Assembly (NCBI RefSeq): GCF_000017845.1
Contig: NC_010547.1
Coordinates: forward strand, 397,702-429,701
Source of the DNA: Crocosphaera subtropica ATCC 51142
GTDB taxonomy: Bacteria > Cyanobacteriota > Cyanobacteriia > Cyanobacteriales > Microcystaceae
Length of the DNA stretch: 32,000 bases
Reading direction: 5' to 3'
Shown: one piece after another, positions 19,119 to 32,000 of the stretch
Layout: each line of letters begins with the position of its first letter
Numbering within the stretch: the stretch's first letter is position 1
The notes under the pieces: model-generated
Seen by the model: the letters and a program-made list of their open reading frames with translations, nothing else
What the model was told of the DNA's origin: nothing
Databases searched by the model: none
Position numbers and translations under genes: made by a program

Positions 19119-20342
19119 TCACATCTTGCACCTGACGAGACAAACTTCTAAACCGTGTTCATAAAACCAGGAATTTAGTAACTTTAACCTCCTGAGAAGA
19201 GAAAGGAGTAAAATGTGGGGAAGCAGTAAAACTAAGGCTTGTTGTGCTGAATCATACCAGTCTAAATTATCAAAATTACCATTGTGTAAATATATCCAGT
19301 AGGCTAACATATAAGAAAGAAAAGAAAGAATTAACCAACGATAAACCCCTAATAAAGTTTTTTGCCCAAAACGGTGAAGACTAAACTGATGTTTAGCGGT
19401 TTTAAAGAAACCTTCAATTTGCCAACGATATTTACCCCATCGGGTGATAGTTTTTCCCTTCATAGGTTTCGTAGAAATGACAAATCGTTTAACTCGTTTT
19501 CCATTGCGCTTTAGCCAGACCCATGACACAAATACAGGACAGTTTAAACCGTATAAATATACTTGTTGTCCACGAGTTTTTAAATCGGATACTTTACGTC
19601 CATCCGTTAACTTTCTCCTATTAGGAATTCCTAAGATGCCATGATGATTAAACTTTTGACTACGGATTTTCTTAATAAATTGAATAGTCCCAAAAGCTGT
19701 ATCTCCTAAAACATAAATTTGGAAGGATTTGGTTAAAATAGAAGGTAATGTGTTCAGTAATTTTAAAGCTAATTGAGATGGCGATGGAGTACCTTTGCCC
19801 CTATAAACCCGAAAAGTCCAAGGAATGCGCCAATTTCCTATAACTAAGTAAAGAACAACAATATGTAAACCCTTCTTATGATTATAGACTCTAACTAAGT
19901 CTTTTAGATGAGGAAACTTCCCAACTTTTTCTAAGGTAGTTAAATCTATGATAACTTGTAAAATGGGTTTTCTTCCTTTTTTTCGTTGGGATAAAACAAG
20001 ATTCAAAATAAAAGAACGAATGGTACGTATCAGAGAACGAGTCGACTGCCGACCCACCTTGAATTCAATTCAAGGTGGAAAGCGGCAGTGCATTCCGCAC
20101 CAATTATAATGATTCAAGAATCGACTAATAGCACTTTCAGATTTGGTTTCACAATGATGAGGAACAGCATTTCCTTGTCCATCTAACAATAATCCTATAA
20201 TGGATTCTAACGTATCTTTTTGATAAATCGTCGGCATTAAATCTTTTAAAGTAGAAAGTAATTCCTCCTCGCGCGTTCCCATGCGCCGTTCGACGGCGCG
20301 GGGTCGCTCCTCCACTTGAGGTAAAATAGTGTGTGCTGGCAT
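19119..20342 (-). pseudogene. IS4/IS701-like DDE transposase interrupted by one in-frame TGA (20070-20072) inside a hairpin-forming 54-nt segment
   Basis: The two track ORFs (20070..20408 and 19119..20057) are in the same frame. DDE-type motifs: IIDLTTLEK, YVLGDTAFG, YRWQIEGFFKTAK (R-x3-E-x6-K). The likely start is MPAHTILP at 20342. The transposase stop lies inside the left IR. Confidence 0.7.
20046..20088. repeat. Compound hairpin: outer stem CTGCCG/CGGCAG, inner 12-bp stem CCACCTTGAATT-c-AATTCAAGGTGG
   Basis: Read directly. The inner arms 20054-20065 and 20067-20078 are perfect reverse complements. Confidence 0.9.
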
Positions 20343-20401
20343 AGTTATCTTATTAAACAAGAGAATTATAATAACACAGTTGCTCAAGATGAAAGTGGGA
20401 A

Positions 20402-20803
20402 ATGCCAAGAACTGAAAGTGAACTGCAAAAAAATCAACGTAAAGACCGTATTAGAGAAGCAATAGACGCTTTAAAACGGGAAATATCTGAAATTGAGGCT
20501 TCAGGATGGATCGCCCCTCGTGATTGTTACATAGTGAGGTATCGAGCTAAAGGCGCGAAATATCGTTATTGGTATTATCAACTTAAGGCATCATCAGCCG
20601 TCTTTCCAAAAGCTAATAAAAAAGGTGAGTTTTCTCGTTTTAAACATTTGGGAAAAGCAGGAAGTCAAGCACATATAGATGGTGTTAACGCTGTTATTAG
20701 ACGAAGTAAAATTGACCAGTTAACTTCGGCTATTGAAGCCCTTTACGAAAGTTTGCTAGATTTATATCCTGATGAAGAAAAACCCGGCCATAGGGTGGAG
20801 TAA
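20402..20803 (+). CDS. Hypothetical protein (133 aa) carried inside the IS boundaries, divergent from the transposase
   Basis: ORF with protein-like composition: a coiled-coil-like N- and C-terminus and a basic/aromatic core, RYRAKGAKYRYWYYQLK. A TATAAT (gaatTATAATaac) lies in the 59-bp divergent spacer. Confidence 0.4.
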   Translation: MPRTESELQKNQRKDRIREAIDALKREISEIEASGWIAPRDCYIVRYRAKGAKYRYWYYQLKASSAVFPKANKKGEFSRFKHLGKAGSQAHIDGVNAVIRRSKIDQLTSAIEALYESLLDLYPDEEKPGHRVE

Positions 20804-21000
20804 AATAAAAAGTACCTTGGGTTTTAATTAATTCTTGATTATTATTCTCTATTTTAAAAAGAGAACAAACGCCAACCCCCATCAGATAAGGATTTTAGGC
20901 AGCGTTTCTCATATCAATTTTTCTTGGTGCAAGATGTGAGTATAGCTAGACTCAGGGCAAACGCATCTTAAATGTTGGGAAAATTGAGTTATAATGTTTT

Positions 21001-21036
21001 CAGGATTTCAAATTACCAGGTAATTTGAAAAACCTG
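21001..21036. repeat. Compound hairpin CAGG-a-TTTCAAATTACC-a-GGTAATTTGAAA-aa-CCTG in the ISAs1 3' non-coding part
   Basis: Read directly. The 12-bp arms 21006-21017 and 21019-21030 are perfect reverse complements, and the outer CAGG/CCTG also pair. Confidence 0.85.
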
Positions 21037-21192
21037 CAAAAAACTTCTATCAAAAGAAAAAAAGCTTGTTAATGCAAGCATTTAGGATAAAAACAAACAG
21101 CCCTTTATTAACCTCGCACTGAAGTCATTTTTAGAAGTTATTCAGGCACAGGCGATCTGGCGAAGCCAGATCCGCTTTGCGGTGCGCTATTA

Positions 21193-22369
21193 TTAAATAC
21201 CCAAAACTTTAGCTAGATATTTATTATCCCAAGCTGCTTTGAGACGTTTATTCTTTACCCCTATTTTAGCTGTTTTTTCTTGGGAGAGAAGATTAAGGGA
21301 TATTTGTCGTAACCGGACTAAATTCTCAGGAGCGTTGTCTTTATGCACGGGACAATCATCTTCATTGAAAGCCACATTCAAAACCCAATGAAGGTTATTT
21401 TCAATACTCCAGTGACTCCGAACAGCCATCGCTAATTTCTCTGCATTACTGATAAAACTATTGAGATAATAGCGTGTGGCTATTGTTATTTTATCTCCAA
21501 TACGTCGAACTGATTCAACAACACCAATACTTCTCAGTCCAGCCCATTTATCAGTATTTTGTGTTAATAGCTCCACAGAAAATGTCCAATAATGACGGGT
21601 TTCAATGCGACCATAACCTTTCTTGCTCCGTCCTATACGCTGAGGACACCTCAGCGCGGGCGGTGCGCTTTTCAACGGTTCGATGAAAGCTATGTTCAAT
21701 ACCAATCCATTCAGTTTGTTGAGCATTATCAAATACTTCTTTAACTTCTTGAAATAAACCTCTTTGATTGCCTTTAAGTGCAAGGCAATAATCAGCACCT
21801 TTTGAATGTAAAAGTTCGGCAATATCCGTTTGAGTCCCCATCGCATCAATGGTTACTAAACAGCCATTAAGTTCCAAAACTTTGATGAGATGGGGAATAG
21901 CAGTAATTTCCTTCGTTCGTTCATGAACTTTTTGCTGTGCCAAAACTAATCGTTGTTCAGATGCCCAAGCATTTACCAAATGAATCGCTTTTTTTCCTTC
22001 TACTTTATTCACTGAATGCTTTACTGTTTTTCCATCAATATTAACCACATCTCCTGGCATTAATTCTGTTATGGAACTAACCCAATCTCGAAAATATTGT
22101 TCAAATTCATCTGGGTCAATTCGAGCGAACACCCGTGCAAAAGTATCGTGAGAAGGAATCCCATTTTCTAGCTCCAAAAACTGCTTTAACCATTCGTATT
22201 TTGAGTTTCCGTAAGTTTCCATGGCCACAAAGCTATCAGCCCCACAAATCATGGCACACAAGGCGATAACAATAATATCAATCAGCTTGTGGTCTTTGGT
22301 TCTCTCAACTCTTGGGTCAGTCAATTTTTCAAAATGGTCGATAAGCGTTATTTTCGGTCTTAATTTCAT
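21193..22369 (-). pseudogene. ISAs1-family transposase (H-repeat-associated type), frameshifted
   Basis: N-terminus MKLRPKITLIDHFEKLTDPRVERTKDHKLIDIIVIALCAMICGADS is typical of ISAs1 transposases. Downstream are GYGRIETRHYW and WSIENNLHWVLNVAFNEDD. The gene is split into two overlapping frames (21602..22369 and 21193..21849) at a GC-rich 31-nt block. Confidence 0.8.
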
Positions 22370-22494
22370 TCTATCTTACTAACAAGAGCTTTTTCTCATT
22401 ATCTCTCATCTATAAGTATTTGTTAAAAGACAGAGTTTTGTAGCTAATCAGCTTAATCAGCTTCTTACATTGAAATGAAGAGAGAGAGCCGATA

Positions 22495-22524
22495 AATTTG
22501 AAATTAGAATTCTAATTTCAAATT
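22495..22524. repeat. Perfect 30-bp palindrome AATTTGAAATTAGAATTCTAATTTCAAATT (dyad on GAATTC)
   Basis: Read directly. The 15-nt arms are exact reverse complements. It lies between the ISAs1 transposase start and the right IR. Confidence 0.9.
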
Positions 22525-22557
22525 ATGACCTTATTATACCTTAATTTTGCTCATATT

Positions 22558-23118
22558 TTAGATGCGTTTGCCCTGTTTCCAATCACCGATCCCATCCCAC
22601 AACAATTCGACCGTATGCTCAAAAGCATCAGGAATAAACAACCAAAAGAGAGTATCGTGCATTCCATGAAGGTCACTCATGCCACCCTCGTCATATAACA
22701 TTTGTCCTCCGAGTCGAATTTGTTTTCTAGCCTCAACATCTTTAGAAAAAAGATTACCATCAAGAAAATCATGAATAGTAATGGTTTCGGTTAGATTGAG
22801 GACACCTTCATAAATTAACCATCTAGCTTTTTGGAAGGGAAGACAGCTATCAATATCATGATCATAAATTCTCTTAATACCATTAAGTTCGGTTTCTAGT
22901 TTTGCTAATTGCTTGTTAAGGGGGGTGAGGATTGAATCGGAATCAAGATATTTTTCAAGTAGTTGAACTTCAGCAGAAGACTTGGAACGAGAGGGTTGAG
23001 AAACCGTTTCGGGTAATTTAGATTTCTGTTGACCCGACAAAAGTTTGTACTGAGTCGAAGGAGATAATTGAATAGTCGATTGCTGAGATTTTCGGTTTCT
23101 TCTTCTTCTTTTGCTCAT
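22558..23118 (-). CDS. Hypothetical protein (186 aa), 3' end replaced by the ISAs1 terminus
   Basis: Basic, low-complexity N-terminus (MSKRRRRNRKSQQ) followed by a globular C-terminal half. The last codons (QGKRI*) are encoded by the ISAs1 inverted repeat, so the native C-terminus is missing. Confidence 0.5.
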   Translation of the reverse strand: MSKRRRRNRKSQQSTIQLSPSTQYKLLSGQQKSKLPETVSQPSRSKSSAEVQLLEKYLDSDSILTPLNKQLAKLETELNGIKRIYDHDIDSCLPFQKARWLIYEGVLNLTETITIHDFLDGNLFSKDVEARKQIRLGGQMLYDEGGMSDLHGMHDTLFWLFIPDAFEHTVELLWDGIGDWKQGKRI

Positions 23119-23177
23119 AGTTTTATTCTGAATAATATGGATTTAGAGGTCAGATTGATAGGTTGTTTCAATAGTAA

Positions 23178-25769
23178 TTAATCCTCTATCAAAGGGAGAA
23201 CAAAAGCTTTAAGTTGTTCAGAATCTTTGCCCCGATTATGAGTACGAGGATTAGAAACATTACTATTGCTATGAAGTTGCTCAATCTCTGATTGATGTTC
23301 TTTCTGAAACTCAACTGCGGCCTGGCGGTGAATACCAAAAGAAGTCTCCAATAAACAGGTATTAATCGCCCAAGTCTGGTCAGGATGTTGTTGGTTCCAT
23401 TGAGTAACAGCATCAAGGACTTTTTGAGCTTTATCTTTGGCCGCACCCTTGGGTCCACGAGTTCTACGAGTTTTTTTCCTAGTGGTTTTACTTGTCGTCT
23501 TGGTTTTAGTCTTCTGAGGGGTTTGAGAATTGGTAGTATCGCTATCAATAGGTAATTCAATCTGTTCACCTAAAAATACTTTTTTGACAGCTTCAAAACG
23601 GCTGACTTTTTCCTTAAGTTTTTCATTCTCCTGTTGATAATCATTAACTTGTTTGTTCAACTGAGTGACTTGAAATGAGAAAGACTCATTGTCTTTCTGA
23701 AGTTTAGTAATCTGACCTTGTAATTGTTGGATTTGTGTTTCATAATCGTCCTTATCAGCTTGAGGGTAAGTTTGTGTTGGGTTAGCATCTTGTCTAGCCA
23801 ACTGTTGAGTCAATAAAGCAATGGTTTGAGCTTGATTATGTAGAGTTTCTTGAATCATGGGGTCAAGGCCAAAAATAACCCGTGGTTGGGATTTCATCGA
23901 ATCATCATGATCATTAGTTTGTTCAGTGGGTGGTGTCTCTCGAAGAGAGCGTAATTGTTTAGTTGTCCATCTAAGAAGACCATGAATAATTTGTGATGGT
24001 TCTCCAGTCAGGTTAAGCTGTTGACCAATTTTGAGTAACCGGTTTGTGTCATCATCAGAAATTAAAGAAGGTTCCGACTCTTCTGTAACTGTATAATCCC
24101 TAGTAGTTTGTCGATAAAAATCAATCAGTGCATCAAGATTATCAAAAGGAAGATGAGCGCGAATCGCTTGAGTGACATAAGGTTGACAATGGTTATCAAT
24201 ATAACTAGGGGTTTGGTAACGTAAATCTTGAACGTCAAGATGCTGTCTAAGCTTTTGTACAGACTCAACGACAAAAGAAGCATCAATCAAGGTTTTAAGG
24301 GTTGATTTAGCCCCTAAACCTGTTGGGGAAAAAGTAACAGTAAAAGGATCATGACTAGCTTCAAAAGTTCCTGACTTAATCAACTCACCTGGAGAACGAC
24401 CTGTAACTGCCATTAACGCAGCAATTAAAACTGTATAACTATCACTACTCAACATTTGGGATAAAGCTAGATTAAGTGATCGCTTTAATTCATCATCAAA
24501 CTCTGAATCAATGAAATCGAATGACGGTACTTCTTTTATCTCTGTTTCAGGTTGAGGGTCTTGAGATTGATTCAAAGGTTCTGGTTGGGTTATTATTGCT
24601 TTATCTGTATAATATCGTTGGTCAGTTAAAGGAAACTCAGCTAATTTGACCCCTTTATTCCCCAGTCGGTTGCCTTCTGTGTCCACTAAATAATAATGGA
24701 AATAATGGGGAGTAGCAGGGCTGTTAGGAGCCACCTGTTCATCAAGGACGTGACCTAAATAATTCTGAAGAAAACGGTGTTCATGACGGAATTCAGGACA
24801 GAAAAAGTGGACAGCGATCGCCCCATAAACACCCCTTAAACGATGGATAGAAACATAATTCTTACCAGGAATGACAGGAACTATCTCCGTCTCTTGAAAG
24901 AGTTTTTGAACCATTCGATTAACTTGTACATTAAAACCCTTAACCTCATTACTTTGGCTACTAAAGTTTTGAAGCTTAGCCACAGCAGGAAGTTTGCGAA
25001 ACTGTATAATAGCTTGAATAACCTGAGTAGCAGGAAGGATGGTCAAAATATCGAAGTTAGTGGGTTCCCCTTCTTTCTTTTTCTGCTGTCCTTCAAAGTG
25101 GAGTAAATAAGGATGGTTAGTAAGGGTAAAATTCCCTTTAGTTAAGACTTCCGTGTGTCGTCGTCCGGTAGCACCAGCAATAGCGATCGCTAATTTATAC
25201 TCTAACCGATCTTTATTTTTTGTCTGTATTAATTTCTGAATCTGCTCTAAGTACCGATGAAGTGGTACAGGTTGTAAATTATCCTGACGTTCGTTATTAA
25301 TTGAAGTGGTTTGATTTCTGAGGGCTTTATAAGTTTGTGGGTCATACTTAAGATAGGTTAAGGCATAGTGTTCATGAGCTTCTGCCTGTTCCCCTGTATT
25401 ATGTTTATGATAAGTGTAACGATGAGAATTGTGATCGGTCAAAGGTAGATCCCCATCATTGATGGCTTGTTCAATAGCATGACGGTACTTAGCCAAGATA
25501 TCAGAACCAATGGTACTCTTGGGATATCCTTCTTCTAATAAAGCGATTTCAGCCTCACATAAAGCCTGTATGTCAGCTTCATTATCAATGGCCTTAAGGC
25601 TTTCAATGAACCAATTGATGAGGGTTTGCCTTTCATGAGAAGTTAGTTTAGTTCGTTTACAGGCCTGAATGCGATCACGGTAATCAACGAGGATTTCTTG
25701 ACGAAGCGAAGTTAAATCCTCTCGTTGACAAAAATGAATTAAGCTCTGAGTCTGCTGTAGAGATGTCAT
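23178..25769 (-). CDS. Protelomerase / telomere resolvase-like tyrosine recombinase (863 aa) with a long C-terminal extension
   Basis: Ordered catalytic signature: ATGRRHTE (aa 200-207), QQKKKEG (228-234), SIHRLRGVYGAIAV (307-320), YLGHV (337-341), HYFHYY (355-360). A large helical N-terminal region precedes the core. The C-terminal half has a coiled coil (QIQQLQGQITKLQKDNE...KLKEKV) and a basic tract (KTKTKTTSKTTRKKTRRTRGPKG). Confidence 0.65.
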   Translation of the reverse strand: MTSLQQTQSLIHFCQREDLTSLRQEILVDYRDRIQACKRTKLTSHERQTLINWFIESLKAIDNEADIQALCEAEIALLEEGYPKSTIGSDILAKYRHAIEQAINDGDLPLTDHNSHRYTYHKHNTGEQAEAHEHYALTYLKYDPQTYKALRNQTTSINNERQDNLQPVPLHRYLEQIQKLIQTKNKDRLEYKLAIAIAGATGRRHTEVLTKGNFTLTNHPYLLHFEGQQKKKEGEPTNFDILTILPATQVIQAIIQFRKLPAVAKLQNFSSQSNEVKGFNVQVNRMVQKLFQETEIVPVIPGKNYVSIHRLRGVYGAIAVHFFCPEFRHEHRFLQNYLGHVLDEQVAPNSPATPHYFHYYLVDTEGNRLGNKGVKLAEFPLTDQRYYTDKAIITQPEPLNQSQDPQPETEIKEVPSFDFIDSEFDDELKRSLNLALSQMLSSDSYTVLIAALMAVTGRSPGELIKSGTFEASHDPFTVTFSPTGLGAKSTLKTLIDASFVVESVQKLRQHLDVQDLRYQTPSYIDNHCQPYVTQAIRAHLPFDNLDALIDFYRQTTRDYTVTEESEPSLISDDDTNRLLKIGQQLNLTGEPSQIIHGLLRWTTKQLRSLRETPPTEQTNDHDDSMKSQPRVIFGLDPMIQETLHNQAQTIALLTQQLARQDANPTQTYPQADKDDYETQIQQLQGQITKLQKDNESFSFQVTQLNKQVNDYQQENEKLKEKVSRFEAVKKVFLGEQIELPIDSDTTNSQTPQKTKTKTTSKTTRKKTRRTRGPKGAAKDKAQKVLDAVTQWNQQHPDQTWAINTCLLETSFGIHRQAAVEFQKEHQSEIEQLHSNSNVSNPRTHNRGKDSEQLKAFVLPLIED

Positions 25770-25836
25770 GAGACTGTTGAGTTGATAAAAAGATTGAACT
25801 GATCTGTTATTATTTTATCTGTATAATAAATAAAAG

Positions 25837-26487
25837 TCAAGGTTGTATTCCCAGTCCACACCAAGCAGTATAAGCAACAGCAATGGCATCAACCTCCTGA
25901 TTCAAAAGGATACTCTGCAAATCAAACAACTCCTCAACAATAGCACTCAAGTCTTCTCGTTCGGCTTTGGGATGATCAAGATTACTTTTCCAGGTTGCAG
26001 GATAAATCATTGTAGGTAAGCAACCATGACGATAAGCCACTAAATTAACCACACCTAACACTTGCAGTAACTTAGTTGTTGAGGGGTATTCAGCCTTGAT
26101 AAAGGGCTGTTCGATGGCAATATGGTTAGGTTGATATTCAACTAGGATTTCCCGTAAATCCGTCTCGATTTCCCCTAGTCGGTAGGGTAGAGGATCATGG
26201 GAATCAGTTTCAATCAAACCAAAATCAACCATGTTGGGTTCTTCTGTAGGTTCTCCTTCAATGACAGCCCATCCTAAATTAGAGATGCTAGGTTTGATCC
26301 CAAGCCATCGAGGAATCTGGGTGTTATGGTTAGGATTATAGTCTAAACTACGAGCATAGGTGGTTATTTCTTCGATAAAACATTCAGGAACTCGAATGGG
26401 TTTAGTCGGTAAATGATTCCAATTCGGTTTTTGTCGAATCAGGTTTTTATATCGGGCGTTCTGGATAGCCATGTTAGGAGTGTACAC
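25837..26487 (-). CDS. RuvC-like Holliday-junction-resolvase-fold protein with ~60-aa N-terminal extension (GTG 26487, alternative ATG 26472)
   Basis: Collinear with E. coli RuvC. WLGIKPSISNLGWAVIEG aligns to ILGIDPGSRVTGYGVI. LPYRLGEI...YQPNHIAIEQPF aligns to LPSRLKLI...FQPDYFAIEQVF. EVDAIAVAY aligns to AADALAIAI. Confidence 0.65.
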   Translation of the reverse strand: MYTPNMAIQNARYKNLIRQKPNWNHLPTKPIRVPECFIEEITTYARSLDYNPNHNTQIPRWLGIKPSISNLGWAVIEGEPTEEPNMVDFGLIETDSHDPLPYRLGEIETDLREILVEYQPNHIAIEQPFIKAEYPSTTKLLQVLGVVNLVAYRHGCLPTMIYPATWKSNLDHPKAEREDLSAIVEELFDLQSILLNQEVDAIAVAYTAWCGLGIQP

Positions 26488-27089
26488 TCGAATAGAGATA
26501 AACTTAACTAAATTAATAAAATTCTTATTTTATCATTCCATGACTAAATGAATTATTGATAGAAGGATATAGAAAAAACTCATAATTTAGGTCTATTGTT
26601 GATTAATATTAATGAGTAGATATTTTTCAGAAAAAAGAAAAACAGAGCAAAAAATACTATATCTAGCTAATCTTGAATCTAGGTAAGATTAAGAAATTAT
26701 TAACAGTTTTCTGAGAAAAATATTAAAGGTTTTAACAATTTAGTTAATTCGTTAAGAAATGTTGCGATTGCTGTTGAGGGGTTGCTAGGCTGTGAATGAA
26801 CCAAGATTGATAAGTATTTTTACTTGTCGGAGGCTCCATTATGACTACTGATTTTTTACCGGTTGTTTTAGTTTTAGTTGTTGGCTGGTTATTAGCTGCC
26901 ACATTAGGGACTTGGGCTTAAACAGAAGGGGCTAAAAAAGCAGGATGTCTTCTGAGTAATGGAGTAGTAACCATTGCCTTAACAGGAGTATGGAATGGGC
27001 AAACAGGGAAAGGGAGTAACCTTAAAGGCAGTCTCAAGAAATTTATCGTACCGGGCCGTCCCATCTATTTAGCCTTCGATGCTGATGTA

Positions 27090-29447
27090 GTGGTCAAAGA
27101 ATCAGTAGAAAAGGCTTTAATCCAGTTTGGACGGTTATGTAAGAAAGCCAAAGCCGAAGTGTTAATCATGCAGTGGGATTTAACCCTTGGGAAAGGTATA
27201 GATGATGTGGTAGTCAACCAAGGGACAGAAGCCTTAGAGAAAATTATTAATCAAGCCATAAGCTATGGAAATTGGTTAAAAGAGCTAAATACCAGCAATG
27301 AAAATTCAAAAACAAAACAAACTCAAAAATATCAACAAATACCAAAAGCGGATGTAATCGGAATGCAAATCACAGAGAACCACAGAGATCGATTAATCTA
27401 CTGCGATGAACTATCATCCTGGTTAGCCTACGAAATCGATGGGGAAACAGGGATTTGGGAGATGATCTCCAAAGATATCATGCTCTCAATCATAGATAGG
27501 ATAGTAGAATCCCAAGGGATAAGAGGTTACGGTTCCTCATCTTACATTGAGAACATAGAGAAAAAGATGAGACGGCTGTTAGTGTGCAAACATTGGGAAG
27601 AGAAAAACGAGAAACATTTACCCTTTGAAAATGGGGTATTAGACCTAGAAACCTCAAAATTCCATCAACACGCCCCAGGATTTAGGTTAACCTCAAAATT
27701 ACCTCGACAATATAATCCTCTCGCCACCTCTTGGTCAAAGACAGACCAATGGCTTACCGAAGTGGTCAAGGGGGATGAGAAAGCCAAAGAACTTTTACTG
27801 TGTTACATGGCCGCCGTACTCAGAGGAAGATATGACCTGCAAGTGTTTTGTTACCTCATTGGGAGTGGGGGTGCCGGAAAATCTACCTTTACAAACCTTC
27901 TAACCCAACTGGTAGGAGAACAAAATACTGTCGAACTAGATTTTGACGAATTAGATGATAAACACGAAGTCATTCGATTATTCGGGAAAAGATTACTGAT
28001 TTTAGCTGATCAAGACAGAGTAGGACGGAAAATAGCCAACTTCAAGAAATTAACAGGAGGCGATCGCTTATCGGGTCGTTACTTATTCAAAAACTCCATG
28101 TCATTCCAATTCAAGGGACTGGCCTGTGTCACAAGCAATCCCCCCAATGTCTTTCCAGCTAGTACCGCTAAATGGTTATTAAGGCGTATGAGGTTAGTAG
28201 AATTTAACGGACGGTTCCAACCCAATTATCACCTGATGGACGAATTAGAACCGGAACTACCCGGATTAACCAATTATCTTCTCAACCTACCGGAACATCA
28301 TATAGAAAATATCCTCAAAGGACGTGCCAAAGAACTGACAGCCACGACATGGGAACATCAATGTCGCAGCGATGGGTTAGCATCGTGGATTAATGATTGG
28401 TTAATTCAAGATGAGAACGCTTTTTCAATCATTGGTTCCAATGGGAAAGAATGGAACGACTCGGAATATAATGCCTATTCATCCACATTATATGGTTCCT
28501 ATGTGCTGTACTGTAAGCAAACCGGAAGAACCCCGAAAACCACCCAAAACTTTTCGGCTGACCTCATCGAAGTGACAGAGAGGATATTAGGGTGGCCAGT
28601 GAAAAAAAGACGCAAACGGATCGCAGGAAAAATAGTCAGGGGAATAGAAGGAATCAGACTGAGAACCAATGATGACGATGAGCAGTTGCTCGTAGAAGAT
28701 ACTTTGTATAGCTGTGACAATGGTGACAACCAAAAAGAGAATGTGACAACAGAGCGAGACAGGCTAGAATTCCCCATTGACCTAGGTTGTGACAACTTTG
28801 ACCACTTAATTACTAATGAGCAACAAAATGAATTAGAAAAAAGTTTAGTGGCCTTAAGTGTTGCCCCTCAAAATAACATTGAGAGTAATGGGCAAAAGGT
28901 TGTCACAGAAACCGTATCTTCTACAACGCAGGCAGAGAAAGGGTTAGCAGAAAATCAACCAGTTGTCACAGCTAAAAATGGATCAGAGGTGTTGTCACAA
29001 GTTGATTATTCAACCTTTCCTCATCTGACCAGTAATGACCTCAGAGCTAAGGAGAAAAGAGCCATATCGATTAAGAAGAGGATGTTAGCTTGTTCTCATC
29101 GAAACCATTTAGTTCAATTGAGGGAAAATGCAGGATATTCCCCGAATGAAATTCAATGGGTTTGGAAGCATAGTTTAACTTCATCACAAAAAAAACAGAT
29201 AGATCAAGCAGCCAATCTGACGCAAAAAGACATCTTTGAATCATTAGATGAGCGATCTGAGTATGATTGGCACGAAATTATCCAAGGGATTGACCTTGAA
29301 TTAGTGCGACTGGGTTGGACTATTGAACAAGCTCAACAGTACATGAAAGAAAAATATGGTAAACACTCAAGGCAACTCTTAGAAGATCATCAATTACTTA
29401 GCTTTTGGCAAGATTTACAACGGATGTCTGTTGAAGTTAAAGAGTAA
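27090..29447 (+). CDS. Plasmid/phage primase-helicase: DUF3854/Toprim-like domain + P4/D5-type primase C-terminal NTPase; 5'-truncated (homology starts at 26922, upstream of the called GTG)
   Basis: The in-frame upstream sequence TEGAKKAGCLL...VWNG...PIYLAFDADVV gives the Toprim E and DxD motifs. GKGIDDVV follows. Walker A GSGGAGKST and Walker B-like LLILADQD fit a P4-family primase C-terminal domain. The long C-terminal tail was not recognised. Confidence 0.7.
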   Translation: MVKESVEKALIQFGRLCKKAKAEVLIMQWDLTLGKGIDDVVVNQGTEALEKIINQAISYGNWLKELNTSNENSKTKQTQKYQQIPKADVIGMQITENHRDRLIYCDELSSWLAYEIDGETGIWEMISKDIMLSIIDRIVESQGIRGYGSSSYIENIEKKMRRLLVCKHWEEKNEKHLPFENGVLDLETSKFHQHAPGFRLTSKLPRQYNPLATSWSKTDQWLTEVVKGDEKAKELLLCYMAAVLRGRYDLQVFCYLIGSGGAGKSTFTNLLTQLVGEQNTVELDFDELDDKHEVIRLFGKRLLILADQDRVGRKIANFKKLTGGDRLSGRYLFKNSMSFQFKGLACVTSNPPNVFPASTAKWLLRRMRLVEFNGRFQPNYHLMDELEPELPGLTNYLLNLPEHHIENILKGRAKELTATTWEHQCRSDGLASWINDWLIQDENAFSIIGSNGKEWNDSEYNAYSSTLYGSYVLYCKQTGRTPKTTQNFSADLIEVTERILGWPVKKRRKRIAGKIVRGIEGIRLRTNDDDEQLLVEDTLYSCDNGDNQKENVTTERDRLEFPIDLGCDNFDHLITNEQQNELEKSLVALSVAPQNNIESNGQKVVTETVSSTTQAEKGLAENQPVVTAKNGSEVLSQVDYSTFPHLTSNDLRAKEKRAISIKKRMLACSHRNHLVQLRENAGYSPNEIQWVWKHSLTSSQKKQIDQAANLTQKDIFESLDERSEYDWHEIIQGIDLELVRLGWTIEQAQQYMKEKYGKHSRQLLEDHQLLSFWQDLQRMSVEVKE

Positions 29448-29472
29448 GTTATTTTGTCTGTATAATAGCGGA

Positions 29473-29667
29473 TTAGATGGTTCGGACATTGACAGCGCAA
29501 GGGCCTTTCCTTCCTTGCCCAACTTCATACTCGACTGTTTGCCCTTCTTCTAGGGATTGGCTTTGGACTTCTGAATAATGGACAAAGAGATCCTCTCCTC
29601 CATCCTGTTGTGCGATAAACCCATAGCCTTTTTGGGTATCGAACCACTTAACTTGACCTTGTGCCAT
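29473..29667 (-). CDS. Cold-shock protein (CspA family, 64 aa)
   Basis: RNP-1-like KGYGFI and RNP-2-like LFVHYS motifs, with the typical VKWFD start. Confidence 0.9.
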
Positions 29668-29843
29668 AAAGCTGTTTAAATCTCATAGGAAGAAAAATTG
29701 CGCTCTGAGTTGATGGTGTTAGTCATCCCCCAGTCAGCGTCCAGTCTGATTATATAACTTATGTTCTAACTTGGCACTATAAGTTAGAGAAGTCTGTTCT
29801 TGATGATGTTTACCTGAATTAAGGGGATTACTAAGGTTATCTG

Positions 29844-29849
29844 TATAAT
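29844..29849 (+). promoter_or_regulatory. Consensus -10 hexamer TATAAT, 7 nt upstream of the ATG of Rpn copy 1 (predicts leaderless or near-leaderless mRNA)
   Basis: tctgTATAATaaagtgaATG. No Shine-Dalgarno sequence lies in between. Confidence 0.4.
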
Positions 29850-29856
29850 AAAGTGA

Positions 29857-30692
29857 ATGTACGACTCAACTTGTAAGTTCATCGCAGCTAATTTTAAAAG
29901 GGATGTAGCAACTTGGCTATTAGGAAAGCCAATGGAATTAACAGAACTAAAGCCATCAGAGCTATCATTAGAGCCGATAAGAGCGGACAGTCTCATATTT
30001 TTGGAGTCAGAAGACTTGGTACTTCATATTGAGTTTCAAACAGACCCAGATGAGGATATACCGTTTAGAATGCTAGATTATAGGCTAAGAGTACATCGTC
30101 GTTATCCCGATAAGGAAATGCACCAAGTAGTGATTTACTTGCGGCCAAACAGGTCATCATTAGTGTATCAAAATGTTTTTGAACTGTCGGGGACAAGACA
30201 TGAATTTCGGATAATTAGGATGTGGGAAATGCCTTATGAACCATTATTAGAAGCACCTGGATTATTGCCTTTTGCGGTTTTGAGTCTAGAAAGCGATCGA
30301 GAAATGGTTTTAGAAAAGTAGCAAGGCAAATCGATGAGATTAGCGACCGCACTAACAAAAGCAATATAGCAGCGTCAACAGCACTTCTGGCTGGTTTATT
30401 ATTAGATAAGGACACCATAAACAAATTATTGAGGGAAGACATTATGAAAGAATCAGTTATTTATCAAGACATTAAATCTCAAGGAAAAGCAGAAGGAAAA
30501 GCAGAAGGGAAGCAGGAAGGAGAAGCAAATTTGATAAAAATACTACTGAACAGTCGTTTTGGTCAAATTGAACCCGATTTAACCGAAATAATTAATCAAT
30601 TATCTGTTGAACAACTAGAAAGTTTAGGCACTTTATTATTGAATTTTGAAAGTGAATCCGATCTTCGTGACTGGTTGACACAACAAGATTAA
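29857..30692 (+). pseudogene. Rpn-family (PD-(D/E)XK) recombination-promoting nuclease/putative transposase with DUF4351-like C-terminus, copy 1, frameshifted
   Basis: Nearly identical to copy 2 over the first ~455 nt. GAAAA at 30313-30317 corresponds to GGGAAA in copy 2, a 1-nt deletion that creates TAG at 30319. The rest is open in the +1 frame through 30692 (track ORF 30429..30692). Confidence 0.75.
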
Positions 30693-30715
30693 TTAGATTT
30701 TTGATATTTTGTCTG

Positions 30716-30721
30716 TATAAT
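30716..30721 (+). promoter_or_regulatory. Consensus -10 hexamer TATAAT, 7 nt upstream of the ATG of Rpn copy 2
   Basis: Same arrangement as at 29844: tctgTATAATaaagtgaATG. Confidence 0.4.
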
Positions 30722-30728
30722 AAAGTGA

Positions 30729-31565
30729 ATGTACGACTCAACTTGTAAGTTCATCGCAGCTAATTTTAAAAGGGATATAGCAACTTGGCTATTAGGGAAG
30801 CCAATGGAATTAACAGAACTAAAGCCATCAGAGCTATCATTAGAGCCGATAAGAGCGGACAGTCTCATATTTTTGGAGTCAGAAGACTTGGTACTTCATA
30901 TTGAGTTTCAAACAGACCCAGATGAGGATATACCGTTTAGAATGCTAGATTATAGGCTAAGAGTACATCGTCGTTATCCCGATAAGGAAATGCACCAAGT
31001 AGTGATTTACTTGCGGCCAAACAGGTCATCATTAGTGTATCAAAATGTTTTTGAACTGTCGGGGACAAGACATGAATTTCGGATAATTAGGATGTGGGAA
31101 ATGCCTTATGAACCATTATTAGAAGCACCTGGATTATTGCCTTTTGCGGTTTTGAGTCTAGAAAGCGATCGAGAAATGGTTTTAGGGAAAGTAGCAAGGC
31201 AAATCGATGAGATTAGCGATCGCACTAGCAAAAGCAATATAGCAGCGTCAACAGCACTTCTAGCTGGTCTATTATTAGATAAGGACACCATAAACAAATT
31301 GTTGAGAGAAGACATTATGAAAGAATCAGTTATTTATCAAGATATTAAATCTCAAGGAAAAGCGGAAGGAAAAGAAGAAGGGAGACAAGAAGAAGCAGTT
31401 AATCTAATAAAACTTTTACTGAATAGTCGTTTTGGTCAAATTGCACCCGATTTAACCGAAATAATCAATCAATTATCTGTTGAACAGCTAGAAAGTTTAG
31501 GTACTTCATTGTTAGGTTTTCAATCTGAATCCGATCTCCGTGATTGGTTGTCTCAACACAATTAA
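30729..31565 (+). CDS. Rpn-family (PD-(D/E)XK) recombination-promoting nuclease/putative transposase with DUF4351-like C-terminus, copy 2 (intact)
   Basis: The N-terminal core has RADSLIFLESEDLVLHIEFQTDPD (D...E.Q-type PD-(D/E)XK strand pattern). The C-terminus ESVIYQDIKSQGKAEGK...LSVEQLESLG...SESDLRDWL is typical of cyanobacterial DUF4351 tails. Confidence 0.7.
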   Translation: MYDSTCKFIAANFKRDIATWLLGKPMELTELKPSELSLEPIRADSLIFLESEDLVLHIEFQTDPDEDIPFRMLDYRLRVHRRYPDKEMHQVVIYLRPNRSSLVYQNVFELSGTRHEFRIIRMWEMPYEPLLEAPGLLPFAVLSLESDREMVLGKVARQIDEISDRTSKSNIAASTALLAGLLLDKDTINKLLREDIMKESVIYQDIKSQGKAEGKEEGRQEEAVNLIKLLLNSRFGQIAPDLTEIINQLSVEQLESLGTSLLGFQSESDLRDWLSQHN

Positions 31566-32000
31566 GGGTATTTTAAATTTGCAGTTTGCTTGTATGATTT
31601 TGACTGTATAATGTATTAAGCAGATAGAAAATTGTTTCACTGCTCACTGCGATCACGAAGTACCGCTTTTAGCGATCGCCACAGATGATGAAGCTCAAAA
31701 ACGCCGATAGAATAAGTTTCTTGTCAATATGAACAAATAACATATAATGAGGTGTCAATGCTTGAAAGGGTATTTTTAATGGGCTATGAGACTATACACG
31801 AAGATGGTTTCTTGATTCTCCCACAAATGAATTAGCTATTGCTCTTTGGATATCTTCTTTTCATTCTAACAAAACTGATTTGCCTTGTCTGTATATAAGT
31901 TTATGAATGTATAATACCTACTCCTATTTATTCATATATTAAGGGGAATTCCCTTCTAACCGATAGATAGGTAAGGGGGCTGAAACCCTCTCCGCATAAG

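Follow-up and report, generated by a model that had tools for sequence, protein, structure and literature searches.

cce_5211 as the probable telomere resolvase of the linear chromosome of Crocosphaera subtropica ATCC 51142

Telomere resolvases, or protelomerases, are known from N15 (TelN), phiKO2 (TelK), Borrelia (ResT) and the linear chromosome that Agrobacterium tumefaciens carries (TelA). In N15, the telN gene lies beside the primase-helicase gene repA. The paper on the TelA structure (2013) already counted cyanobacteria among the bacteria with hairpin telomeres. For one cyanobacterial enzyme, TelT from the PAST telomeric transposon of Leptolyngbya ohadii, conversion of an inverted repeat into hairpins has been reported in vitro, and PAST telomeric transposons are reported to capture and move cyanobacterial protelomerase genes (bioRxiv 10.1101/2024.11.13.623437). 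In this study, we analysed a stretch of 32,000 nt from Crocosphaera subtropica ATCC 51142 (formerly Cyanothece sp. ATCC 51142), positions 397,702-429,701 of NC_010547.1, hereafter referred to as the window; all coordinates below are window positions. Our subject is cce_5211 (23178-25769, minus strand), which encodes an intact telomere resolvase of 863 aa. This protein, in our view, is likely to be the telomere resolvase at work on the strain's 430-kb linear chromosome.

To our knowledge, no linear replicon had been reported in a photosynthetic bacterium before this 430-kb chromosome. An earlier reading of the locus, made from its letters without database searches and called here the original prediction, had named the linear chromosome of Cyanothece ATCC 51142 as one option for the host replicon. 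The protein is 100% identical to ACB54557.1 (WP_009547583.1), which confirms that option. The open reading frames (ORFs) proposed at the time proved exact in coordinates and size: three lie on the minus strand, at 25837-26487 (216 aa, RuvC-like, cce_5212), 23178-25769 (863 aa, cce_5211) and 22558-23118 (186 aa, cce_5210), with gaps of 67 and 59 bp, and one of 785 aa lies on the plus strand at 27090-29447. Together with the Rpn-like gene cce_5217 (30729-31565), the three minus-strand genes are on the 429,701-bp linear chromosome. Its linearity is taken from the literature, where the 430-kb replicon is described as a linear chromosome (PMC3187577, PMC4674748). The origin, oriC-L, has been published at 373.5 kb, where it separates cce_5168 from cce_5169, and is not in the window. 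Judging by locus-tag order, the resolvase cluster would be found about 40 genes rightward of oriC-L and roughly 10-25 kb from the right end, with cce_5211 as a subtelomeric, inward-reading gene of the right arm.

We found that cce_5211 matches the whole of PF16684, the profile of the ResT/TelK catalytic domain (profile positions 1-181 of 181; E=1.8e-61; 207.3 bits against a cut-off of 27), and has a sub-threshold match to TelA in NCBIfam. When the PDB was searched by sequence, TelA and TelK were the sole matches, both with the single sequence and with a profile of 16 family members. The motifs and spacing of tyrosine recombinases and telomere resolvases to which attention had been drawn were verified at ATGRR (200-204), QQKKK (228-232), HRLRGVY (309-315), LGH (338-340) and HYFHYY (355-360). 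In the profile alignment, the second Arg of TGRR (Arg204) corresponds to TelA Arg255, an unambiguous match, as the R255A chains in the PDB have TGRA at this point. The same chains set an offset of 20 residues between TelA chain and residue numbers. With this offset, Lys230, Arg312 and His340 align with the GQAK, LR and LGH motifs of TelA, and Tyr356 (chain position 425) aligns with the nucleophile Tyr405. Arg204, Lys230, His309, Arg312, His340 and Tyr356 are invariant in the 16 family members (36-83% identity). The spacing also matches that of the catalytic set of ResT (Arg199, Lys224, Tyr293, Arg296, His324 and Tyr335).

The predicted fold agrees with these data. The AlphaFold model has a mean predicted local distance difference test score (pLDDT) of 72, with 80-92 in the folded domains, and its eight best Foldseek matches in the PDB are all TelA, TelK or ResT. 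TelA leads with E=3.9e-10 (template modelling score 0.66), followed by TelK (2.6e-8) and ResT (4.7e-4), whereas Tn1549 Int, XerH and Cre appear only from E=0.04 upward. Profile, structure and catalytic alignment are the lines on which the identification of the 863-aa ORF could have foundered, and each of them bears it out. The databases vary in what they call the protein: it is 'unknown' in GenBank, 'protelomerase family protein' in RefSeq and 'Telomere resolvase ResT/TelK catalytic domain-containing protein' in UniProt. Given the last two names and the activity of TelT in vitro (bioRxiv 10.1101/2024.11.13.623437), the statement that cyanobacterial telomere resolution had not been characterised cannot stand.

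Among the described enzymes, TelA (PDB 4dwp, 4f43) is the best match in both sequence and fold. The two proteins share the arrangement of TGRR, GQxK, LR, LGH and Tyr as well as an N-terminal helical segment, and both are encoded on a chromosome and not by a phage. Unlike TelA, to which it is about 20% identical, cce_5211 is twice as long and has His309 where TelA has Tyr363. Its TelA-like core comprises aa 1-360, beyond which lie features additional to those of TelA: a degenerate second copy of the catalytic domain, a long coiled coil and a conserved C-terminal helical domain. Within the core, the N-terminal helical domain (aa 1-160; 25290-25769, minus strand; pLDDT 77-92) was recognised by its alignment with TelA, in which aa 51-110 correspond to TelA residues 134-190 (chain 154-210). 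The catalytic domain (aa 164-359; 24693-25280, minus strand) accounts for the whole PF16684 profile and contains the Tyr codon at 24702-24704. The second catalytic-domain copy (aa 415-590; 24000-24527, minus strand) is partial, reads VTGRS for ATGRR and is without HxxR and the half that holds His and Tyr. Even so, it passes the PF16684 threshold on its own (E=2e-9, profile positions 14-120 of 181), matches the true catalytic domain by BLASTP (E=2e-4) and is modelled with the same order of helices and strands at a pLDDT of about 90. This copy is restricted to a subclade of Crocosphaera, Microcystaceae and Aphanothece. The coiled-coil segment (aa 637-733; 23571-23861, minus strand) consists of the predicted helices H637-662 and H673-733, with weak Pfam coiled-coil matches (ZapB, DUF3450). 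The C-terminal helical domain (aa 775-863; 23181-23447, minus strand) is conserved throughout the family, is modelled at a pLDDT of 85-92 and has no Pfam match; it is probably DNA-binding. A C-terminal DNA-binding extension is also predicted for TelT (bioRxiv 10.1101/2024.11.13.623437). By description, TelT resembles cce_5211 in this extension, in its cyanobacterial origin, in its size (81.7 kDa) and in the subtelomeric position of its gene.

The original prediction presented the cluster as a remnant of a visibly decayed module. This description does not fit the resolvase, because its ORF is complete and its ratio of non-synonymous to synonymous substitution rates (dN/dS) is low. In comparison with the C. 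chwakensis CCY0110 orthologue, which is 83% identical, dN/dS is 0.22 for the whole gene and falls to 0.08 in the N-terminal, 0.07 in the catalytic and 0.06 in the C-terminal domain. The gene is full length, has all catalytic residues and is under purifying selection.

We then asked which genes form a unit with cce_5211. The adjoining cce_5210 (22558-23118, minus strand) encodes a 186-aa orphan protein with a dN/dS of 0.21. Its C. chwakensis orthologue (182 aa, 92% identity) adjoins the resolvase gene in the same orientation. On other Crocosphaera contigs a relative of cce_5210 is still linked to the resolvase gene, there convergent and with a toxin-antitoxin pair between the two. A word-indexed search placed the protein in 6 clusters confined to Crocosphaera, and in a profile search of 1.8 billion representatives its C-terminal half had some 85 distant relatives, none of them characterised. 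Its predicted structure has a pLDDT of 53. As a conserved partner of the resolvase, the 186-aa protein holds up within Crocosphaera but not outside this genus.

On the other hand, the pairing of the resolvase with the RuvC-like gene, which had been read as an operon with a nuclease, does not hold. Nucleotide similarity to C. chwakensis (86.6%) spans 25841-22576, that is, from four bases after the stop codon of the RuvC-like gene to an insertion sequence (IS). The gap between the RuvC-like and resolvase genes contains a promoter-like site, TTGACT-17-TAAAAT (25812-25840, minus strand). With 10 of 12 consensus positions it is the best match in the region, and its equivalent in C. chwakensis reads TTGACT-17-TATAAT. 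Moreover, a RuvC-like neighbour is absent from all 59 related genomic loci. Because of where the homology starts, the promoter-like site and this absence, we take the conserved unit to be the resolvase with cce_5210 and not the RuvC-like gene with the resolvase.

The product of cce_5212 (25837-26487, minus strand) is a 216-aa RuvC-fold protein (PF02075, E=2.5e-16; PDB RuvC, E=1.6e-12). RuvC has four catalytic residues, which are Asp7, Glu66, Asp138 and Asp141 in Escherichia coli and Asp7, Glu70, His143 and Asp146 in Thermus thermophilus. In the PDB match, GIKPS of cce_5212 is aligned to GIDPG of RuvC, so that Lys65 stands at the first catalytic position; Gln197 stands at the third, and Glu126 and Asp200 are kept. 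Two of the four residues of a canonical Holliday-junction resolvase are thus missing. All 12 close family members have Lys or Arg for the first Asp, with Gln or Ala at the third position. The gene is under purifying selection (dN/dS 0.10), and the family has a conserved N-terminal extension of about 60 aa (W..LPTKAIRVPE.F.EEI..YA..LD). From these substitutions, cce_5212 is unlikely to be a conventional junction nuclease; it may be a non-nucleolytic, junction-binding protein. The family is small (34 clusters, in Crocosphaera, Cyanothece and Aphanothece) and includes a paralogue on the 39.6-kb plasmid of ATCC 51142. Its members tend to lie near primase-helicase genes of the type found here, sometimes with a resolvase gene 8 kb off.

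On either side of the two-gene unit, synteny with the closest relative is lost. This, too, is what one would expect if the resolvase belonged to a cassette of mobile or plasmid origin (for instance, a telomeric transposon or a linear plasmid that has integrated) and served the telomere of that element, or another replicon in the cell, instead of chromosome-wide housekeeping. The plasmid-type flanks, with the primase-helicase gene and the RuvC-like gene that has a plasmid paralogue, fit this explanation, and so does the reported traffic of cyanobacterial protelomerase genes in PAST transposons. However, Pfam scans of the window ORFs revealed no TnsB, TnsC or TniQ, but only IS-type transposases and ordinary chromosomal genes, and the sole rve-type protein in the window is a 229-aa IS3-like integrase. 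In this respect the locus differs from TelT and its transposon: PAST elements carry TnsB-TnsC-TniQ upstream, and neither TnsBCQ nor TnsP genes are present in the window. The resolvase gene also matches its host in GC content and in the density of HIP1 octamers. The octamers previously noted in the resolvase and primase genes were confirmed at 24814, 25183 and 28060, and the whole window has 11 of them against 0.09 expected. If the cassette forms the present telomere of the chromosome, this explanation merges with the one that we favour. As a separate account, we regard it as unlikely.

It is very unlikely that the cluster is a relic, decayed from an old maintenance module of a linear plasmid or prophage, with the resolvase unused and the chromosome ends maintained by other means. 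The argument for a relic comes from the neighbourhood: the adjoining primase-helicase gene is truncated with an in-frame stop, the region is full of IS elements, and no target dyad lies next to the resolvase gene. Against it stand the full-length resolvase ORF with its catalytic residues, the low dN/dS of the conserved domains and the 186-aa partner, which is essentially intact. Moreover, the host replicon is reported to be linear, and we saw no other gene for end maintenance in the window.

The truncation of the primase-helicase gene (26922-29447, plus strand; DUF3854 (Toprim), D5_N and DUF5906 in Pfam and NCBIfam) is genuine. Its first start codon is the GTG at 27090, which yields the 785-aa ORF, and the frame extends upstream of it through Toprim motifs (TEGAKKAG ... 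FDAD). An in-frame TAA (26919-26921) lies directly before TEGAKKAG, and GTG 27090 lies after the DxD motif. The protein aligns with a 994-aa Aphanothece relative at 43% identity from about residue 170 of the latter onward; its relatives measure 994-1043 aa, and the missing N-terminal stretch of about 170 residues has no counterpart anywhere in the window. The stop codon and this alignment confirm the 5' truncation that had been proposed. A hydrophobic mini-ORF of 26 codons, MTTDFLPVVLVLVVGWLLAATLGTWA (26841-26921, plus strand), lies in frame upstream of the primase and ends at the TAA; it is unrelated to the missing N-terminus. The truncation point is reached by an AT-rich spacer (26488-26840), whose reported length of about 350 bp and composition (26% GC against 38% for the window) were confirmed. 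Only short imperfect inverted repeats were found in this spacer. We rejected it as a candidate for oriC-L, since the window contains neither the published primers nor the Lbox oligonucleotide nor the TTATCCATA box.

The supposed decay of the neighbours is therefore real for the primase and merely cosmetic for the 186-aa ORF. The IS that adjoins the latter is a 1623-bp element of the ISAs1 family (20953-22575, minus strand), with DDE_Tnp_1_assoc and DDE_Tnp_1 in a transposase that is split into two overlapping ORFs. Its end, CAGGGCAAACGCATCTAA, supplies the last five codons of cce_5210 (QGKRI) and the stop, and these replace the single last residue of the 182-aa orthologue; from its sequence, cce_5210 appears essentially intact despite the IS. 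The element has perfect terminal inverted repeats of 16 nt (CAGGGCAAACGCATCT) within unusually long imperfect inverted ends (63-79 nt), each of which contains a palindrome built on AATTTGAAA/TTTCAAATT; these subterminal palindromes lie at 21006-21030 and 22495-22524. There is no target-site duplication (the flanks are TAGACT and TTTCCA), which suggests a rearrangement at the element. A search for other copies in plasmids gave no match.

The right-hand palindrome of the IS, AATTTGAAATTAGAATTCTAATTTCAAATT at 22495-22524, is a perfect 30-bp palindrome of a kind not expected by chance, and we considered it as a tel site. This candidate was rejected because the palindrome lies within the IS, 51-80 nt inside its right end, because the left end has a related 25-bp palindrome at the mirror position, and because homology with both C. 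chwakensis loci stops at 22576, the boundary of the IS. The claim that no long dyad occurs in 22576-32000 stands, and we found no other in the rest of the window; what it missed is the IS-borne palindrome just outside that range. The lack of any other long dyad is expected if the targets are the chromosome's own ends, which we took to lie outside the window. An Rfam scan of 20000-32000 gave no match, no relevant tandem repeats were found in the resolvase cluster, and the Pfam scans of the window ORFs detected no phage structural genes.

These data also set the locus apart from the N15-type module, in which telN, the adjacent telRL and repA stand together. Like TelN, TelK and ResT, cce_5211 belongs to PF16684 and has the same set of catalytic residues. 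Its relatives often adjoin a primase-helicase gene, as telN adjoins repA. The primase-helicase is in fact the most recurrent neighbour of the resolvase in the clade, found in Aphanothece hegewaldii, a Nostocaceae metagenome-assembled genome, Cyanothece BG0011 and twice on the linear replicon of PCC 7822, so that this pairing, as opposed to the RuvC-like one, recurs next to relatives. In contrast to the N15 and phiKO2 type, the cluster has no adjacent tel site and no phage genes; the sole long palindrome lies in the IS, and the primase is short by about 170 residues. Phage protelomerases are distant from cce_5211: identity does not exceed 30% and extends over less than 20% of the protein.

The weakest alternative, which is highly improbable, is that the protein does not form hairpins but serves as a site-specific recombinase of circular DNA or in another DNA transaction such as strand annealing. 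In its favour, some relatives are in circular-annotated records, resolvases are reported to have annealing activities, and few mutations are reported to convert one of them into a Cre-like recombinase (PMC7861564, PMC12270096). Against it, only resolvases are found among the closest matches in structure and sequence, the topology annotated for hairpin-ended replicons is unreliable (the contig of one relative shows a fold-back), and the host replicon is linear.

We return to cce_5211 as the resolvase of the linear chromosome. In the mechanism that we infer from this analysis, for its enzymatic activity and target site as for the hairpin ends and co-transcription, the chromosome ends would be covalently closed hairpins, by analogy with the systems of TelA, TelK, ResT and TelT. 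Replication from the internal origin would round these hairpins and yield inverted-repeat junctions, each of which would be bound by a dimer of cce_5211. Tyr356 would then attack each strand a few bp on either side of the dyad, assisted by Arg204, Lys230, Arg312 and His340, and the strands would be resealed to their own complements, which would regenerate two hairpin ends. The resolvase gene would be transcribed from its own promoter together with its Crocosphaera-specific partner cce_5210. The RuvC-like gene and the truncated primase would be what remains of a replication cluster of plasmid type, which resolvase genes often have as a companion, and not required parts of the resolvase unit.

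Several points weigh against this reading. For the 430-kb chromosome we saw neither a telomere sequence nor a dyad target nor a fold-back, and the distance to its right end comes from locus-tag order counted from oriC-L and not from measurement. Co-transcription of cce_5211 and cce_5210 and the use of the promoter are deduced from consensus and synteny; the promoter-like site is a consensus match, and such matches in the region do not exceed the number expected by chance. In addition, relatives occur in records annotated as circular, such as pP742401 of PCC 7424 and the Altericista chromosome, so that the presence of the gene is in itself no proof of a linear, hairpin-ended replicon.

The wider family comprises more than 330 relatives, nearly all of them cyanobacterial. 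Among 40 loci, the 5' end of the resolvase gene lies less than 2 kb from a contig end in 18, against 8.5 expected, and the 3' end in only 6. This orientation bias means that the resolvase genes tend to read inward from the presumed telomere. In Stenomitos frigidus ULC18, a perfect, spacerless palindrome of 1,148 bp, with TTTTTTGGAATTCCAAAAAA at its centre, occupies positions 1-1148 of the contig (locus L045). It lies 3.9 kb from the resolvase gene and probably represents read-through of a hairpin telomere. Shorter terminal palindromes were observed in three further loci (L047, L056 and L017).

Linear elements have been reported in just one other 'Cyanothece', Gloeothece verrucosa (Cyanothece) PCC 7822. 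It has three relatives of cce_5211 on a 473,846-bp record annotated as linear (Cy782202), one of them 5.2 kb from the left end. These genes resemble cce_5211 (41% identity) in their linear-annotated setting, in the adjoining DUF5906/DUF3854 primase-helicase and in the position of one copy about 5 kb from an end. They differ in that there are three copies, the primases are intact, and no RuvC-like gene or cce_5210 homologue is adjacent. No terminal inverted repeats were found in this record (NC_014534.1). The first 55 or so bases of its left end (L067, 1-60) resemble a cloning-vector polylinker (GAGCTC, GCCGGC, GGGCCC, ACTAG), and its right end stops inside a transposase gene; because of these features, neither end of the record is a true telomere.

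Two circular-annotated records also drew our attention. On pP742401 of Gloeothece citriformis PCC 7424 (L066), the protelomerase gene is located 1 kb from the junction between the start and the end of the record, and its topology may deserve a second look. In the record of Altericista sp. CCNU0014, annotated as a complete circular chromosome, two resolvase segments of at least 22 kb (L019 and L051, at about 2.36-2.44 Mb) are 99.97-100% identical. They face in opposite directions at a distance of about 59 kb and differ by the inversion of an internal piece of 8.2 kb; either a telomere junction or an artefact of assembly could explain them. In Thermosynechococcaceae, Acaryochloridaceae and Altericista (L019, L020, L024, L025, L030 and L051), the conserved partner is not that of Crocosphaera: a co-oriented ORF of about 398 aa, with weak fatty-acid-hydroxylase and short-chain-dehydrogenase matches, follows the resolvase gene after 82-144 bp. 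To the right of the primase in our window, a gene of the Rpn family (recombination-promoting nuclease/putative transposase) is duplicated in tandem (29857-31565, plus strand). The first copy is split into ORFs of 154 and 87 aa, the second (cce_5217, 278 aa) is intact, and both hold a 12-bp tandem repeat, AAGGAAAAGCAG, that encodes KAEG repeats. Rpn-like ORFs are also found near resolvase genes in three related loci (L005, L007 and L056).

Neither the class of enzyme nor its occurrence in cyanobacteria is new, and databases already name cce_5211 accordingly. What appears to have gone unstated is the link between this gene and the linear chromosome of Cyanothece 51142, of which it is the likely end-maintenance enzyme. 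Our literature search found no paper that combines 'Cyanothece' with 'hairpin telomere', and the papers searched on the 430-kb chromosome treat its origin and gene content, never its ends. The searched text and supplements of the TelT preprint contain no mention of Cyanothece or Crocosphaera, RuvC or primase. The duplicated dead domain, the orphan partner and the adjacent RuvC-derived protein with its incomplete active site are minor variant features. It is conceivable, if doubtful, that they jointly define a distinct hairpin-telomere variant in Crocosphaera and its relatives. Such a variant would combine a resolvase that has a catalytically dead second catalytic-domain copy, an orphan partner of the cce_5210 family that stays linked through rearrangements, and a RuvC-derived protein without its metal-binding residues, whose role in the plasmid-type cluster for replication and telomeres would be to bind junctions or cruciforms and not to act as a nuclease.

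The knowledge of telomere resolution itself is left unchanged by cce_5211, which offers a plausible and unsurprising explanation for the upkeep of the chromosome ends. The result is useful for the engineering of ATCC 51142, a model diazotroph, and for the development of protelomerase tools. For the organism, the finding of an intact, conserved resolvase near one end of the chromosome leads to a prediction, namely that the ends of this linear chromosome would be covalently closed hairpins made by cce_5211.

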